Notes: a model not told the origin generated them from the letters alone. 59,816 bases of DNA from an uncultured virus (IMG/VR IMGVR_UViG_3300042922_000886) (IMGVR_UViG_3300042922_000886:62001-121816); one strand, 5' to 3'; positions 24,454 to 47,758 are shown, counted from the stretch's first letter. Made by a program: numbers and translations.

Positions 24454-25761
24454 ATGATTAGAGATCGTTCTGAACTTGAGCTACATCTGCAAGAGGCTAT
24501 CGAACGAATAAAATATAAAAGAAAAAATGTCGAAGAAGTAAATAAATCTTTGTTAGAATATGACGTTCCACCGGGATTTTTCAATGAAGTTTGTAAGAAA
24601 TACTCGATTCTTCAAGAAATCGATGCAGCATTGTTATGCTTAATAGCTAAAGCAGTATTTATGATTGATGGTAGTGATTCCATTAGAGTGGAAAATTACT
24701 TCACACAGGGCGAAATTGAGAGTGCTTCAAAATATAAACTAGAAAGAGATCAAGATATAAAACTGCCCATTATCCTTAATGAAGTTATTAAAATAGACAA
24801 TGACCGGTACTTTACAAAGATCAAGATGACGGATTTAGTACAATGGTATCACTCAAAGTTAATTGTATATGACGCAGAAACACAGAGAGGTTTAAAATTT
24901 ATTCGCTCCAGAGATGGGGTTGTGCCGGTTCCAATTGTCAATAAAGATAGCGTTGACAATATTGCAAATCATATGGAAGACGAGACATTCTTCACAGACA
25001 CTATCCGATTAAATGTATACTCTGAGGAGTTTGAACCAGTTATATACAATCCTAAGACACGCATGTTAACGATTAAAGAAGGAGTCACAATTTCTATTCT
25101 TGATGGTTTCCATCGGCTTCAAGGTGGTGTCAGAGCCGTCATGAAAAACCCCGAACTGCCACTTATAGAAGAACTGTCTATTTGTATCTATGACACAGAA
25201 ACAGCTAAGAAGTTTTTTGGACAAATTAACAAATACAACCCCATTGATCCTCAACGTCTTGAAGAATTAGATGAGGAAAAAGTATCATTTGCAGCAGTTA
25301 AACAGTTAAAAATACACTCAGTCTTAAAAGGCAGAATTGCATCTGGATCTAAGATTAGTGGATTAGTCGGACATCTTACAACGGAAAGTATACTTGCAAC
25401 GGCTATTGAGGAAGTTTTCGAACCCAGAAACACCCCACAAGCAAACTCTGTTGGAGTATATCTTGTAGAGTTTTTTAATTATTTATTTGAGACGTTTAAA
25501 GATCAAATTAACAACAAAGATTCGCTACTTGGACATCAGAGAATGTTTATTGGGTACATTGTGATAGCAAAACAATTTAAAGATTATGACATTCCTTTAG
25601 AAGAGATCAAAGTGGTTGTTAATTATTTTAACTCTGATTATAATGAAGAATTGAGACAATTACTCACCAACAATAGAGGAACACAAGCGAGATTACAGAA
25701 ACTTGTTAAAGAATACTTTGAAAAGACAGATGTGAAATCAATTTTGAAATCAGGAGAGTAA
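24454..25761 (+). CDS. DndB/ParB-like (DGQHR-type) protein resembling SPbeta YopQ
   Basis: ETQRG, SILDGFHRL and FFGQIN motifs; directly upstream of the MrpR-like gene. Confidence 0.75.
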   Translation: MIRDRSELELHLQEAIERIKYKRKNVEEVNKSLLEYDVPPGFFNEVCKKYSILQEIDAALLCLIAKAVFMIDGSDSIRVENYFTQGEIESASKYKLERDQDIKLPIILNEVIKIDNDRYFTKIKMTDLVQWYHSKLIVYDAETQRGLKFIRSRDGVVPVPIVNKDSVDNIANHMEDETFFTDTIRLNVYSEEFEPVIYNPKTRMLTIKEGVTISILDGFHRLQGGVRAVMKNPELPLIEELSICIYDTETAKKFFGQINKYNPIDPQRLEELDEEKVSFAAVKQLKIHSVLKGRIASGSKISGLVGHLTTESILATAIEEVFEPRNTPQANSVGVYLVEFFNYLFETFKDQINNKDSLLGHQRMFIGYIVIAKQFKDYDIPLEEIKVVVNYFNSDYNEELRQLLTNNRGTQARLQKLVKEYFEKTDVKSILKSGE

Positions 25762-25764
25762 AAC

Positions 25765-26763
25765 ATGTCCAATAAGATTTATCAAGGTGGTTTTTATAAC
25801 GAATATCAAAAATTTCGTTATCTAAAAACACTGCCTGAAAAATCGGTCGCACAAGCATCCCGAATTTTGAGTCGAGCAAGGCCAATAGAAGAACAATATG
25901 ACATTGATTTATACAATTTCAGTCTACATCAAGTTGAAAACCTATTTAATTATCTCGAACCTTCAACTTTAAATGCGAGTCGTTCAAATTTCTATATTGT
26001 GCAAAACTATATCAGGTGGGGCATTGAGCAAAACTTAAGAGATGACAACCTCAATCCTATTGAATTGTTTTCAGATGTTGCATACTTCAACAGATTCATC
26101 GATCAATCAAAAAAGGCACTTTACACAAAAGATGAGATTGATGACATTGTTGATACATGTAAGAATGCTCAAGATTCGTTAGTGATCCAATTGATTTTTG
26201 AAGGCGTATTTGGAGTATCTGGCTATACAGAACTTCTAAATTTAACAACAAATGATGTACTGGAAAACAACACATTGCGGCTCAAAGATGGAGATAGCGA
26301 AAGACTTATTCGAGTGTCTGATAAATGTATCAGATTAATTGAAAAAGCCATTAATGAAGAAGTTTATTATAAAAAGAATGGTAATGCCAGTGTAAACCTC
26401 AAATCAGCAGATCATGCCGAGTTAGTTAAAAATAATTATGTTTTAAGAAATGTTAACACGAGAAGTAAAGATGACGGGATCGCAGACGCTCACCTTGTAT
26501 TAAGAAGAATTAAAGCTATAAAAGAATATGCTGAATTAAAAGTTTTAACTCCTTATATTGTAAGGAATTCAGGAATGTTGTACTTAGCGAAAAAGATATA
26601 CGAAGAAGAAAACAAATTAGAAAAAGATCAAATAATATCAGTGTGTAGACAGTTTGGTATTCGAAAGATAAATAACAATGGTTATGAAGTTTATAATACT
26701 CATAGATACACTGAAGACTTTTTAAATGTTAGGACTATCGATGAGGTATATGCAGACAGTTAA
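25765..26763 (+). CDS. Catalytically degenerate tyrosine-recombinase-fold protein resembling SPbeta master repressor MrpR (YopR)
   Basis: YNE.QK..YL start; LIFEGVFGVSGYTELLNL lacks the catalytic Arg; TPYIVRNSG replaces HxxR; follows the YopQ-like gene. Confidence 0.75.
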   Translation: MSNKIYQGGFYNEYQKFRYLKTLPEKSVAQASRILSRARPIEEQYDIDLYNFSLHQVENLFNYLEPSTLNASRSNFYIVQNYIRWGIEQNLRDDNLNPIELFSDVAYFNRFIDQSKKALYTKDEIDDIVDTCKNAQDSLVIQLIFEGVFGVSGYTELLNLTTNDVLENNTLRLKDGDSERLIRVSDKCIRLIEKAINEEVYYKKNGNASVNLKSADHAELVKNNYVLRNVNTRSKDDGIADAHLVLRRIKAIKEYAELKVLTPYIVRNSGMLYLAKKIYEEENKLEKDQIISVCRQFGIRKINNNGYEVYNTHRYTEDFLNVRTIDEVYADS

Positions 26764-26782
26764 CTCTCTGTCTGCATTTTTT
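26751..26782 (+). terminator. Rho-independent terminator
   Basis: TGCAGACAG/CTGTCTGCA stem followed by T6. Confidence 0.85.
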
Positions 26783-26831
26783 GTTGTTTTCTGACTGTGA
26801 AACTACTTTAAACATTTATTTATAAAATGTG

Positions 26832-26861
26832 TTGACGGACTTAGGAAGAATGTGGTACATT
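26832..26861 (+). promoter_or_regulatory. Sigma-A promoter of the agr-like operon
   Basis: TTGACG-N18-TACATT with TGTG extension. Confidence 0.55.
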
Positions 26862-26924
26862 TATATCAAGAAAACAAACAGTAGATGTTTTAAAGATTTA
26901 TGTTATAAAACATAATGGGGAAGA

Positions 26925-27575
26925 GTGATATCGATGGATGCAGTTAGATTTTTCATGTTATCTATCTTAGAAGTTTCAACTTTGTTTGTTCTCATGTTCT
27001 CGATATTTAGATTCAAAGTTAGGTTCTATATAAAAGAAATAATTTTTATAAGCGTGTTGATTTCGTTGGCATCTTATTATCTTAGATTTTTTGAGAATCT
27101 ATATAGTTTAGTTCCGATAATACTCCTTGTTCTTATAATAATAAATTTATGGATTGTGTTTAAAATATCACCTTTCTACGCAGCTATTATGGGGATTGCT
27201 TCCTACGTCGGTTATAGTGTTGTACAGGCACTGATACTTTGGATCATGCAAGAGGCCAACTTTGTTACATTCAATCAGATAAAAGAAAACAATCTACAAA
27301 CTGGTCAGTTACTTCAGATAATATCGGTTGCCATTACTCTACTGATATCTGTTGTTTTAGTAAGGTTTAGACTATGGTTTACGTTTGTTCCTGTATCAAA
27401 TTCTGTACTCATAAAGATCAACTCGAAGAATCTTATTACACTAATTGCAATTACAATATCTATCATCATAGTAGGATCGATTTTTAATATAAATAATATC
27501 GCTCTTATACTCATTGGATTAGTATTTGTCGCTGGATTTATTTATTACCTTCTATATAAAAGGGAGACAACATGA
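26925..27575 (+). CDS. Polytopic membrane protein resembling the AgrC sensor domain, with no histidine kinase domain
   Basis: About 6-7 hydrophobic helices over 216 aa; no H-box/ATPase motifs; ATGA overlap with agrB. Confidence 0.7.
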   Translation: MISMDAVRFFMLSILEVSTLFVLMFSIFRFKVRFYIKEIIFISVLISLASYYLRFFENLYSLVPIILLVLIIINLWIVFKISPFYAAIMGIASYVGYSVVQALILWIMQEANFVTFNQIKENNLQTGQLLQIISVAITLLISVVLVRFRLWFTFVPVSNSVLIKINSKNLITLIAITISIIIVGSIFNINNIALILIGLVFVAGFIYYLLYKRETT

Positions 27576-28099
27576 TTGATAAATTAACTCATACAATTGG
27601 TATGAAAATCAAAAAGAATTATCCAGAAGCAAACATTGAAATCCTTAAATACTCATTGAACGTAATAATAAACCCACTAGCAACAATTATTCTCTCAATG
27701 GTAATATCACACTTTACTAATGATACTTATGATGTTGTAATCGCTATGGTTTCGTTCGCTGTACTTAGGGCATTCTCTGGCGGAATACATATTAAATCAT
27801 CGGAGCTATGCATAATTATCTCAACGACATTATTTATTGGAATCTCTTTTTTGCACGATTACCTCGTTGACTATACACTAATACTCACTATCGTATCATC
27901 ATTATTAACCTTGACTTTTGCACCATCTAGAATTTATGGTCAAACAAGAATTCCGGAGCAGTTCTATCCGATTCTAAAAGTTGTTTCATTGGGTATTATT
28001 TCAATTAATTATATATTTAACAGCAGTGTACTTGCTTTAACTTTTTTCATACAAAGTATGCTGCTGATTAACATCGGGAAAGGAGGTGAAAACAAATGA
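27572..28099 (+). CDS. agrB: Accessory gene regulator B (AIP-processing peptidase/cyclase)
   Basis: ILKYSL; LRAFSGGIH...ELC (catalytic His/Cys); FAP motif; multi-TM. Confidence 0.9.
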   Translation: MIDKLTHTIGMKIKKNYPEANIEILKYSLNVIINPLATIILSMVISHFTNDTYDVVIAMVSFAVLRAFSGGIHIKSSELCIIISTTLFIGISFLHDYLVDYTLILTIVSSLLTLTFAPSRIYGQTRIPEQFYPILKVVSLGIISINYIFNSSVLALTFFIQSMLLINIGKGGENK

Positions 28100-28221
28100 A
28101 AAAAATCATCGCAAAATATGCTACCTTGGCTTTGTCTGCAGTTGCTGTTGCTACCGTTAGTGGTACTGCAAGTTTGGTTTTCGTACACAATCCTAAAGTA
28201 CCTCAAGATCTCTTGAAGTAA
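28096..28221 (+). CDS. agrD: Cyclic lactone autoinducer peptide precursor (41 aa: MKKIIAKYATLALSAVAVATVSGTASLVFVHNPKVPQDLLK)
   Basis: Not in ORF track; AAAGGAGGTGA RBS; ATGA overlap with agrB; amphipathic leader, S-x4 core, HxPxxP tail. Confidence 0.9.
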   Translation: MKKIIAKYATLALSAVAVATVSGTASLVFVHNPKVPQDLLK

Positions 28222-28232
28222 TTTTAGGTTGA

Positions 28233-28280
28233 AATTGTTGGACTCGGAGAGTGATCGCTGTACTTTCCAGTCCAACAATT
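28233..28280 (+). promoter_or_regulatory. Long RNA hairpin between agrD and the LytTR gene
   Basis: AATTGTTGGACT...AGTCCAACAATT perfect 12-bp arms, extendable with one bulge and G-U pairs; no clean U-tail. Confidence 0.7.
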
Positions 28281-28311
28281 ATAGTTTCTAGAACTGGAGG
28301 ATATCTTTGCT

Positions 28312-28695
28312 ATGGAGTTTTTCGCAAAAAAGAAAGATGGGAAGAATATTTCAGAAAAAGTTGAAAAAATTCATAGCAAGGATATCTGCTATGTAACCAC
28401 CGAAGGAAGAAAAGCTCATACAATTGCAAAAATGAAAGATGGCTCTGTATATTATATTTCTATGCCAATATCAGAAATTGTTCAAGGATTGGAGGAATAT
28501 GAAAATTTCAAAACAACGGATCGCAGTGTAACAGTCAATATGGATAACGTTACATATTACGAAACGCTGTACGATAGGTTATTTTTTGAACATAACAATG
28601 AAATGAGGGAGTTTACGTTTATTACTGTAGCTAGATCATATGCTAAGGAAATCAAAGTCCTAATGAGGGAATTACGTGTAGAATTTAGGGAATAA
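28312..28695 (+). CDS. Stand-alone LytTR DNA-binding domain protein (no receiver domain)
   Basis: DICYV...FKTTDRSVTVNMDNV...ITVARSY LytTR signature; 127 aa; GGAGG RBS. Confidence 0.8.
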   Translation: MEFFAKKKDGKNISEKVEKIHSKDICYVTTEGRKAHTIAKMKDGSVYYISMPISEIVQGLEEYENFKTTDRSVTVNMDNVTYYETLYDRLFFEHNNEMREFTFITVARSYAKEIKVLMRELRVEFRE

Positions 28696-28833
28696 AGGTT
28701 TTTCAAATATAAAGTAAAACATTAGAATATATTAAACAATTTTATGTGACATATTGCGACAAAATTTTCAATATAATTACATTACATGAAAATGTCAACT
28801 ACATTTTGTCAAGACGAACTGTAATTGAAATGA

Positions 28834-46864: not shown

Positions 46865-47758
46865 TTGAAAGCAAGTACAAATGAAGATTTCAAATTGATT
46901 GCAATTAAAACAAAAGATAGAGTATACATTTCTGACAATATTACTAATTCGAGTTATTTCAATTCACAAATTAAATATTTCCTATTCGATGAAACGGAAG
47001 CAAAAAGTACATATAAGAGCGACTGGTACGAGGTTTCCGCGATTCCCAATAAAATAGAAAAGAGAATTCCTAAGCAAGTTATTAAATCTTGGTATGAGTT
47101 GAAGGAGGCACATTATAATACTAGTTTACCAAGAGTACTTTATAGCAAAGATTTCGCGGAAGATGGAGAATACGAATCAGTTTATGGACTTTATCAGATT
47201 AAAAATGAATATGATGAAGGTGGATTAGAATCTATTAAATTTCAACTAAACGTTATTGAAGAACTCGATGATTTTGTTATTACAAGAAGTGACTACGAAC
47301 TACAACATCCAATTCTTGATAAGATTCAAACACATCCGATTTTACTCACAACTAAACACTGTAGCCTAAGCAGAGAAGATAGTTATAAAATTGTACGTAA
47401 ATATATTAAAGAAAATATTAATCATAAATATGCAACCATTACAAGTGACTATGATTTTTGCTTTACAGTTGCAAAGAAAATTGACCATGATCCTGAACCT
47501 TATCAAGTTAATGTAGGCAAAAGAAAACCGAAGTATGAAACAAGATATCAGAGAACACGAACAGTAAAGACTTACGAAATTGCCCCAAAAGCATATCAAA
47601 ACTATCCTGTAATTGAGCCATTTCAAGGTAAAAATGAACAGGACCTAAAAAATAATATTCAATCATATTTGGATGAAGTTATGGCAGTTATTAATAAACC
47701 ACTTGTTGAATGTGAGCATTGCAAAGGATTGGGGGTTGTAAAGACAAATGAAATTTAA
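46865..47758 (+). CDS. Phage protein with C-terminal CxxCxGxG
   Basis: ITSDYDFCFTV; CEHCKGLG. Confidence 0.7.
   Translation: MKASTNEDFKLIAIKTKDRVYISDNITNSSYFNSQIKYFLFDETEAKSTYKSDWYEVSAIPNKIEKRIPKQVIKSWYELKEAHYNTSLPRVLYSKDFAEDGEYESVYGLYQIKNEYDEGGLESIKFQLNVIEELDDFVITRSDYELQHPILDKIQTHPILLTTKHCSLSREDSYKIVRKYIKENINHKYATITSDYDFCFTVAKKIDHDPEPYQVNVGKRKPKYETRYQRTRTVKTYEIAPKAYQNYPVIEPFQGKNEQDLKNNIQSYLDEVMAVINKPLVECEHCKGLGVVKTNEI

Follow-up and report, generated by a model that had tools for sequence, protein, structure and literature searches.

The DNA analysed here, called the window below, is a stretch of 59,816 nucleotides from an uncultured virus (IMG/VR record IMGVR_UViG_3300042922_000886, positions 62001-121816), and it carries a four-gene agr-type signalling cassette that contains neither a histidine kinase nor a receiver domain. 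On the plus strand and in this order, the cassette codes for a seven-helix membrane protein (26925..27575), the peptidase/cyclase AgrB (27572..28099), a 41-residue AgrD precursor peptide (28096..28221) and a DNA-binding protein of 127 residues which has a LytTR domain only (28312..28695). It directly follows a gene pair for a YopQ-like protein and an MrpR-like putative repressor, with a terminator-like hairpin in between. This arrangement had been proposed in a first-pass annotation, made by a model from the sequence alone, and it stands: all six open reading frames (ORFs) lie on the plus strand where they had been placed, and the ATGA overlaps that join the first three cassette genes can both be read directly in the sequence. 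We interpret the cassette as one instance of a conserved and mobile signalling unit that works without a phosphorelay, in which the membrane protein would sense the peptide and control the LytTR protein, and we give this interpretation about an even chance of being correct. A mechanism free of phosphotransfer is plausible, and a role in lysogeny is speculative.

The four genes are conserved as a unit. A tblastn search with the AgrB of the window returned ten phage records (two each for Davies, Abouo, Harrison and phiCDHM1, one each for Emery and Paisley) and, in addition, seven plasmids. Eleven other cassette loci were examined: those of phages Davies, Emery, Abouo and Harrison, that of one 85-kb viral contig, and those of six Paenibacillaceae plasmids. 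At all eleven, a gene of the membrane family directly precedes agrB, which is followed by a gene for a peptide of 38-82 residues and then by a gene for a protein of 118-132 residues (240 in plasmid pY5S7-2). Membership in the membrane family is based on E-values of 1e-29 to 1e-42 against the family profile and, for the viral contig and Abouo, on ORF and annotation tables and tblastn. When the membrane protein of Davies was used as the tblastn query, exactly the eight Brevibacillus and Paenibacillus phage records with an AgrB were found, while two Clostridium loci have full-length kinases instead and no member of the membrane family. The four proteins co-diverge, their pairwise identities being correlated with r values of 0.84-0.91 (55 pairs from 11 loci); divergence is greatest in the membrane protein and in the LytTR protein (mean identity 30% and 29%, respectively, compared to 38% for AgrB).

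The relatives are found in the Brevibacillus phages Davies (gp45-48), Emery (gp54-57) and Abouo (gp44-47), in the Paenibacillus larvae phages Harrison and Paisley (gp38-41), and on Paenibacillaceae plasmids which include pAP1, pHD02, p1821L02 and pY5S7-2. They agree with the window in the four genes, their order, their overlapping ends and the membrane family, and their AgrBs are 33-41% identical to that of the window. In the phage relatives, as in the window, the cassette is part of the lysogeny module of a temperate phage. The window differs in its carrier, a 183-kb SPbeta-like phage with an MrpR-type repressor adjoining the cassette, whereas the phage relatives adjoin an integrase or an XRE repressor. 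It also differs by a hairpin-bearing gap of 90 nt in front of the LytTR gene and by the type of its AgrD, both of which are described below. Neither blastn with the whole region nor tblastn with the membrane protein of the window gave a match among phage sequences, and the relatives were reached with AgrB and with the Davies membrane protein as queries. Profile scans of bacterial genome contigs gave no relative.

The first-pass annotation had suspected that similar cassettes might already be annotated, and indeed the database entries read AgrB, 'cyclic lactone autoinducer peptide' and 'LytTR family'. This kind of cassette was also partly noted in print in 2014, when Hargreaves et al. described, for three of these phages, membrane proteins that are "AgrC-like" but kinase-less; the LytTR gene is not mentioned there. 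In a 2016 paper on P. larvae phages (PMC5056774), AgrB and a 'peptidase' appear in a table only. A 2025 review retells the phiCDHM1 account (PMC11945551). A study of autoinducing peptides (AIPs) of P. polymyxa from the same year is about an agr locus that is chromosomal and includes agrE, and its main text does not contain the word LytTR (PMC12180512). A full-text literature search turned up no description of the whole four-gene unit, LytTR gene included, and no test of it. New here are the SPbeta-like phage as a carrier, the place beside an mrpR-like gene, and the Ser-type AgrD.

Two further features were observed upstream of related cassettes. In Davies and Emery, a second, paralogous seven-helix gene lies directly upstream of the cassette (L001:2604-3263 and L003:2607-3272). 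A stretch of about 45 nt before the first membrane gene is nearly identical between Davies, Emery and a plasmid of B. laterosporus (L001:2288-2603, L003:2300-2606 and L020:3150-3335) and is readable as a mini-ORF of 12 codons which ends at the start of the membrane gene.

The cassette has no histidine kinase or receiver domain, as the first-pass annotation had stated, and none was found in the 121.8-kb contig to which the window belongs or in the additional sequence that a complete relative of the phage contains. Pfam searches with hmmscan covered 130 of the 135 contig ORFs of at least 90 residues and revealed no kinase, HisKA or receiver domain; the remaining five, which are the cassette ORFs, were scanned separately and likewise have none. 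For the complete relative, 40 of the 86 ORFs of at least 180 residues, picked as being outside of, or in diverged parts of, the shared region, were scanned and no kinase or receiver domain was found. Specifically, PF14501 and PF02518 remained unmatched in the cassette, in the 130 contig ORFs and in the 40 ORFs of the relative, as did PF00072 in the LytTR protein. The sole receiver-like hit was a small cREC_REC protein encoded far upstream. Six-frame family searches also returned no kinase or receiver, but little weight is given to these negatives since the same tool missed the LytTR gene, which hmmscan detects with 29.6 bits. Two plasmids that carry the cassette, pAP1 (79 kb) and one from P. 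rhizovicinus (229 kb), have no HATPase_c_5 kinase. Because the membrane protein has no DHp/ATPase part and the LytTR protein has no receiver, a phosphotransfer from AgrC to AgrA is impossible within the unit.

The first cassette gene codes for the candidate peptide sensor, which is covered in full by a match to phrog_15604 ('membrane protein', E 4.8e-16). It had been described in the first-pass annotation as an all-membrane protein of 216 residues; while the membrane protein at this position is confirmed, its true start is probably at 26934, which gives 213 residues, because the members of the family align only from residue 4 onwards, which is an ATG codon. An AlphaFold (AF2) model based on an alignment of 81 sequences (pLDDT 94.7, pTM 0.90) has seven long helices, and the protein ends a few residues past helix 7. 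Neither Pfam nor NCBIfam has a family that matches the protein, PADLOC, run on six proteins, likewise returned nothing, and a sequence profile search against PDB gave 0 hits. With the model as a query, Foldseek found nothing at E<=0.001 in PDB and BFVD, and a wide VIA-align search gave a best Z of 6.9, matching helical hairpins only. Only unnamed Bacillota clusters were found in the ESM Atlas. An exhaustive HMMER search returned 308 representative clusters at E<=1e-3, of which 124 also pass E<=1e-10, and since the 150 clusters listed span only 149-248 residues (typically about 215), the family is considered to be stand-alone.

By the positive-inside rule, as read from the sequence, the N-terminus of the membrane protein would be outside and the C-terminus inside. 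The loops predicted to be outer ones show the lowest conservation (0.23-0.30), those predicted to be inner ones reach 0.43-0.62 (inner versus outer halves, Mann-Whitney p 5.6e-4), and a predicted cytoplasmic loop has the conserved motif G/W-F-x-F-V-P. Three polar residues within the membrane, E16, Q101 and Q131, are kept in the family. Since the gene order in phage phiCDHM1 is agrC-agrB-agrD, with an overlap of 8 bases, the membrane gene occupies the agrC slot. In addition to this gene position, it has in common with AgrC the seven helices and a weak S-x-x-E-x-x-A match in helix 1 to the AgrC of phiCDHM1. An identity as a CPBP/CAAX protease was considered and rejected, as PF02517 is not matched and the family alignment has no His in any column that is fully or almost fully conserved.

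A member of the membrane family was also found on pBTHD789-2, a 235-kb plasmid of B. thuringiensis HD-789 (L027:3968-4841; E 1.5e-25 against the family profile). It lies among phage-like replication genes and overlaps by 8 bases with an ORF of 52 residues that has a signal-peptide-like start and a Trp-rich end, and there is no AgrB or LytTR gene nearby. This layout ties the family to small exported peptides and fits immunity as well as sensing.

For the two central genes, the identities proposed from the sequence were confirmed by family models. AgrB matches PF04647 (E 2.3e-18, 66.6 bits, cut-off 23) and phrog_10353 (E 1.3e-38), and AgrD matches TIGR04223 (21.8 bits, cut-off 19). His73 and Cys80 of AgrB, which we take to be the catalytic pair by comparison with the S. 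aureus enzyme, are invariant in an alignment with three phage AgrBs. The agrD gene overlaps agrB by ATGA, and its ribosome-binding site GGAGG sits inside the 3' end of agrB. The AgrD peptide is of Ser type and has a predicted ring SLVFV before HNPKVPQDLLK. The register that had been proposed (SLVFV / HNPKVP) is the same in four other TIGR04223-positive peptides: Ser26 and the tail are aligned with their counterparts in phiCDHM1 (SVWYI / NQPKMP), pHD02 (SLSWI / HNPEPP), P. cellulosilyticus (SAYYI / HQPETP) and P. rhizovicinus (SPWLT / NSPDVP). We assume that the cleavage site is, as in S. aureus AgrD, six residues before the conserved proline. A five-residue Ser-lactone ring is the predicted chemistry of the signal.

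The cassettes fall into two peptide classes. A Lys-type peptide is found in seven of the 12 cassette loci (this count includes the window), and the Ser type, to which the window belongs, passes TIGR04223. The viral contig L025, with a peptide tail identical to that of Emery, would raise the Lys type to eight. Peptides of this type have no Ser or Cys at the ring position and a conserved Lys one residue later; the sequences are AKVSI, AKVTI, EKVFL, RKGFV, FKFTI, EKGVI and FKFGL, followed by G-x-P-x-x-P-x-E-L-K. The six Lys-type peptides scanned with TIGR04223, a set that does not include those of Emery and L025, all fail. The window, with Ser at the ring position and a true AgrD, in this respect differs from its phage relatives, which have the Lys one residue later and fail TIGR04223. 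The genes for Lys-type peptides are located at L001:4525-4644, L002:4513-4641, L003:4527-4643, L013:5519-5671, L020:4521-4640, L021:4530-4661 and L034:3019-3147. In this class, AgrB may give rise to a lactam or to a peptide that stays linear.

As a side observation, the complete relative encodes an Rce1/CPBP-type intramembrane protease of 196 residues (PF02517, E 1.4e-20; L043:5079-5669, at about 149 kb), beyond the end of the contig to which the window belongs, and a CPBP gene abuts agrB on a plasmid of C. estertheticum (L019). Maturation of the S. aureus AIP reportedly needs extra membrane factors, such as the CPBP-class protease MroQ. In the relative, the protease could serve to take off the AgrD leader, or its gene could have an Abi/immunity function unrelated to the cassette.

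The last cassette gene codes for a protein that matches PF04397 with 29.6 bits (cut-off 22.6) over residues 16-117. Ten other loci were scanned with Pfam, among them the viral contig, where the LytTR gene is 81% identical to that of Davies. The last cassette gene reaches the cut-off in seven of these (six proteins of 118-132 residues and that of pY5S7-2), stays below it in Davies and Emery, and is without a hit in P. rhizovicinus. Abouo gp47 was outside of the Pfam scan and has no NCBIfam hit. Several phage records annotate the LytTR gene as 'peptidase'. A structure model of the LytTR protein, built from two sequences, is of low quality (pLDDT 57.5). The LytTR protein of pY5S7-2 from P. amylolyticus (L021:4691-5413) has 240 residues with the domain at residues 138-234; its N-terminal part of about 135 residues has no Pfam match and thus, according to Pfam, no receiver domain.

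In the mechanism that we favour, AgrB would use His73 and Cys80 to cut off the C-terminal tail of AgrD and to close the five-residue Ser-lactone ring SLVFV. The N-terminal leader would be removed next, and the peptide would be released. The seven-helix protein, with its agrC position, its variable outer loops and its conserved cytoplasmic loop, would sense the peptide and would act directly on the receiver-less LytTR protein. In the simplest form it would keep the LytTR protein bound at the membrane and then let it go, as streptococcal inhibitors do. The LytTR protein would then switch promoters of the phage or of the host. The membrane gene is the sole constant companion of the LytTR protein, which itself has no input domain. 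Because the cassette also occurs on plasmids, we read the unit as a density- or kin-sensing accessory of mobile elements that would be expressed from the prophage, and this accessory sensing module may or may not feed the lysogeny switch. A more far-reaching version, which we consider quite unlikely, is that the seven-helix proteins are a new class of bacterial peptide receptors, which detect cyclic peptides of the agr type at the membrane and signal to a bare LytTR protein by binding it, without phosphotransfer, that the cassette replaces arbitrium as the input to MrpR, and that the Lys-type sister branch makes a Lys-closed ring or a linear peptide.

Canonical agr (agrBDCA in Staphylococcus, Listeria and Clostridium; agrC-agrB-agrD in phiCDHM1) shares with the cassette the His and Cys of AgrB, the proline-containing tail of AgrD, the LytTR output domain and a polytopic membrane protein at the agrC position. 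Unlike canonical agr, the cassette of the window has no AgrC kinase (HPK10, HATPase_c_5) and no AgrA receiver, and its membrane protein has no detectable similarity to AgrC sensors. A LytTR-only regulator that is held inactive by a co-encoded membrane protein, without phosphorylation, is described for the LytTR regulatory systems HdrRM and BrsRM of S. mutans by Zou et al. 2018 (PMC6193735). According to the same paper, promoters of these systems have 9-bp repeats 12 bp apart, located about 10 bp upstream of the -35 box, and Bacteroides 'LRS-like' operons put the membrane gene first. The S. mutans systems resemble the cassette in combining a soluble LytTR-only regulator with a membrane protein and no kinase, but their operons have no known peptide-making genes and their membrane proteins are from other families. 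As gene order, promoter repeats and membrane family differ, the cassette at most works like a LytTR regulatory system and is not a member of this group.

Several observations weigh against our interpretation. With hhalign, the membrane family reached a probability of only 0.2 and 0.9 against single AgrC sensors and of 0.13 against a three-sequence alignment, the comparison set being three clostridial AgrCs; no solved sensor structure turned up. The membrane protein has no Pfam match to any known inhibitor domain of LytTR systems. A search for longer, fused forms of the membrane family, including kinase fusions, found none, which is weak evidence. Outer loops of membrane proteins often evolve faster for reasons unrelated to ligands. 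The family is not bound to a LytTR output, since the pBTHD789-2 member occurs without AgrB or LytTR. The gene order is reversed with respect to S. mutans, where the regulator comes first, while in the cassette the LytTR gene is last with agrB and agrD in between. Direct repeats of 9 bp at a distance of 11-13 bp, as they mark autoregulated LytTR promoters (9-bp/12-bp), were not found at the expected place upstream of the cassette with up to two mismatches (12 regions from 10 loci, which are the window and nine related loci). Nor are LytTR-type repeats enriched in the phage (109 pairs versus 65-92 in three shuffles). A kinase may also be encoded by the host. A complex prediction for the membrane protein (81 rows) and the LytTR protein (2 rows), with controls not run, scored 0.01 versus a mark of 0.32 and speaks neither for nor against binding.

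It might be that the membrane protein is not a receptor but helps in making, exporting or tolerating the peptide (leader removal, transport or self-immunity), which would be sensed by an AgrC-type kinase of the host or would act on other cells. The LytTR protein would in this case be constitutive or under some other control. We regard this explanation as unlikely. The family member of B. thuringiensis, which is paired with a secreted-looking peptide only, would suit a peptide/immunity pair, yet the signal-peptide-like start of that peptide would need no special exporter. A role in maturation is in line with the conserved intramembrane polar residues E16, Q101 and Q131 and with the extra membrane factors, such as MroQ, that reportedly take part in AIP maturation in S. 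aureus; however, the family has neither the His/Glu motifs of CPBP proteases nor a match among families of transporters or proteases, and the complete relative already has a separate CPBP/Rce1-like protease. The failure to detect AgrC-sensor homology is likewise what would be seen with a non-receptor, but a LytTR-only protein needs some controller, and the membrane gene is the only one that constantly accompanies it. Still less likely, and in our opinion very improbable, is an interference with host quorum sensing, in which a decoy or dominant-negative sensor and the LytTR protein would blunt the agr system of the host while the phage peptide cross-inhibits host receptors. The two proteins do look like a two-component pair of which only the ligand-facing and the DNA-facing half are present, the catalytic parts being missing, but a four-gene set that is conserved and co-diverges over distant phages and plasmids fits a self-contained circuit better than it fits decoys adapted to many hosts, and there is no detectable similarity of the membrane protein to AgrC sensors.

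A link to lysogeny is suggested by the neighbouring genes. The first of these (24454..25761, plus strand) codes for a YopQ-like protein (DndB/DGQHR-like) which matches PF14072 with 34.8 bits (cut-off 29.1) and phrog_5732 (E 1.8e-96), as well as TIGR03187 below its cut-off (E 1e-9), and which shows 27% identity to SPbeta YopQ (E 6e-35). The second (25765..26763, plus strand) codes for an MrpR (YopR)-like protein with a tyrosine-recombinase fold. Both MrpR domains, the N-terminal PF22822 (E 5e-22) and the C-terminal PF22823 (E 2e-19), are over their cut-offs, and a yopQ homolog precedes the gene. With tblastn, the gene is 29% identical to SPbeta yopR and 34.5% identical to Geobacillus virus E3. 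The order yopQ-yopR is identical in the window and in SPbeta, and from domains and gene order the MrpR-like protein is a putative repressor. A terminator-like hairpin (26750..26777, plus strand), which has a 10-pair stem with 5 GC pairs and a T-rich tail, overlaps with the stop codon of the mrpR-like gene. In SPbeta, yopM-yopR is preceded on its upstream side by yopK and yopL, the genes of arbitrium, and the place equivalent to that of the cassette is taken by the divergent yopS.

The first-pass annotation had proposed that the cassette may count infections or lysogens and feed into the lysogeny switch. In such an arbitrium-like counter, the peptide would come from lysogens or infected cells, and the LytTR protein, once released, would target early lytic promoters or the MrpR/YopQ circuit and in this way set lysogeny or induction. 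Arbitrium (AimR-AimP-AimX of the SPbeta group) is indeed similar in being a phage-encoded secreted peptide system beside a yopM-yopR/mrpR operon in a large temperate phage of Bacillales, but its signal is a linear hexapeptide that is read inside the cell by a TPR receptor, whereas the cassette has a predicted cyclic AgrD-type peptide that would be read at the membrane. We consider such a counter unlikely. The cassette directly follows the terminator of the mrpR-like gene, and at each of the five other phage loci it is part of the lysogeny module, with an integrase and/or repressor-type regulators (XRE, helix-turn-helix) as neighbours; accessory 'moron' genes are, however, common beside lysogeny genes, as this region is transcribed in lysogens. 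The peptide system of SPbeta adjoins the same operon, although upstream rather than downstream. Position is the sole tie of the LytTR protein to the lysogeny switch, and this part of the earlier proposal is not supported. No LytTR-type repeat was found near mrpR, yopQ or elsewhere. It had also been said in advance that a mostly chromosomal cassette without linkage to mrpR-like genes would count against the counter. This is partly the case: no mrpR-like gene is seen in the annotation and ORF lists of the 11 related loci, and six of these loci are on plasmids. For these reasons we regard the cassette as a general accessory that mobile elements carry, rather than as a component of the MrpR circuit. 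One plasmid that carries it, pAP1, has ParM. A query with SPbeta YopK (AimR) found nothing in the contig or in the complete relative, in a search of low sensitivity without a positive control, and no TPR family occurs among the ORFs of both that were scanned with Pfam. As no AimR homolog was found, the phage may lack arbitrium, which keeps the idea of a counter open.

To our knowledge, agr signalling is understood only as a phosphorelay from kinase to regulator, and we know of no receptor for several agrBD loci, e.g. agr1 of C. difficile. The cassette, which is widespread, is a concrete candidate for a second way of reading cyclic peptides. It is carried by temperate phages and plasmids and may also be a communication channel of mobile elements which is distinct from arbitrium and Rap-Phr. 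If the AgrB product of the Lys class were a Lys-closed ring or a linear peptide, this would be a signal chemistry not known for agr. The window is the cleanest place to ask if the signal touches lysogeny, because here a bona fide Ser-type AgrD is found beside a recognisable putative master repressor.

The DNA had been taken for that of a phage, which is confirmed by its origin from an IMG/VR virus record with genes for tail, tape-measure, Gad1, YolD, YopX and MrpR-like proteins. The window is the right-hand 59.8 kb of this record, which has 121,816 bases and a CheckV completeness of 66%. A second viral contig of 183,208 bases (100% complete according to CheckV), the complete relative mentioned above, holds a cassette that is 99% identical to that of the window. 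Positions 1-68,866 and 86,193-121,816 of the record align to it at 91.5-99.9% identity, and no long alignment was found for the stretch in between. The contig is that of a large SPbeta-like siphovirus. According to Pfam hmmscan, it encodes tape-measure and tail proteins, two tyrosine recombinases, PhoH, HU and several DNA methylases, and further Gad1, YolD, YopX, MrpR-like proteins and MazF-type toxins. The complete relative additionally has a large serine recombinase, a ribonucleotide reductase, ThyX, a PolIII alpha subunit and a GH25 lysin. Most of the window is also present in three soil-metagenome sequencing runs, one of which may be the source of this soil phage, and no RNA run is listed with them. 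Among the genes of this phage are a full-length Gad1 (Gabija anti-defence, E 6e-115; window 46865-47758), the cREC_REC protein, a small 'cyclic-phosphate processing receiver' protein (L007:16543-16854), and a PemK/MazF-type toxin gene (L008:5140-5553).

The intergenic regions of the cassette contain a few features that may bear on its expression. The first-pass annotation had assigned to it a sigma-A promoter of its own. There is a promoter-like site on the plus strand (26832..26861; TTGACG, 18 nt, TACATT, with TG before the -10 box), but it agrees with only 9 of 12 consensus positions, and as the region has 37 such matches with 30.1 expected from shuffled sequence, the site is not above chance and the promoter could not be upheld. 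The gap between agrD and the LytTR gene, which comprises 90 nt in the window and only a few bases in related cassettes, contains a long hairpin (28233..28281, plus strand) with a stem of roughly 20 bp and without a clear T-run. The RNA fold of 28222-28311 has -29.5 kcal/mol (z -3.59), and 2 of 200 shuffles were as stable. This hairpin may set the ratio of agrBD to LytTR expression.

The best promoter-like match of the region (TTGACA, 17 nt, TATATT; 11 of 12 positions) is on the minus strand at 28770-28805 of the window, just downstream of the LytTR gene and pointing back into it. It overlaps with a 9-bp direct repeat, AATTACATT / AACTACATT (28775-28805), the copies of which start 22 bp apart. 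This repeat, the only 9-bp pair near the cassette, is at chance level. The site could be an antisense promoter or a regulator site, but it, too, is statistically at chance level.

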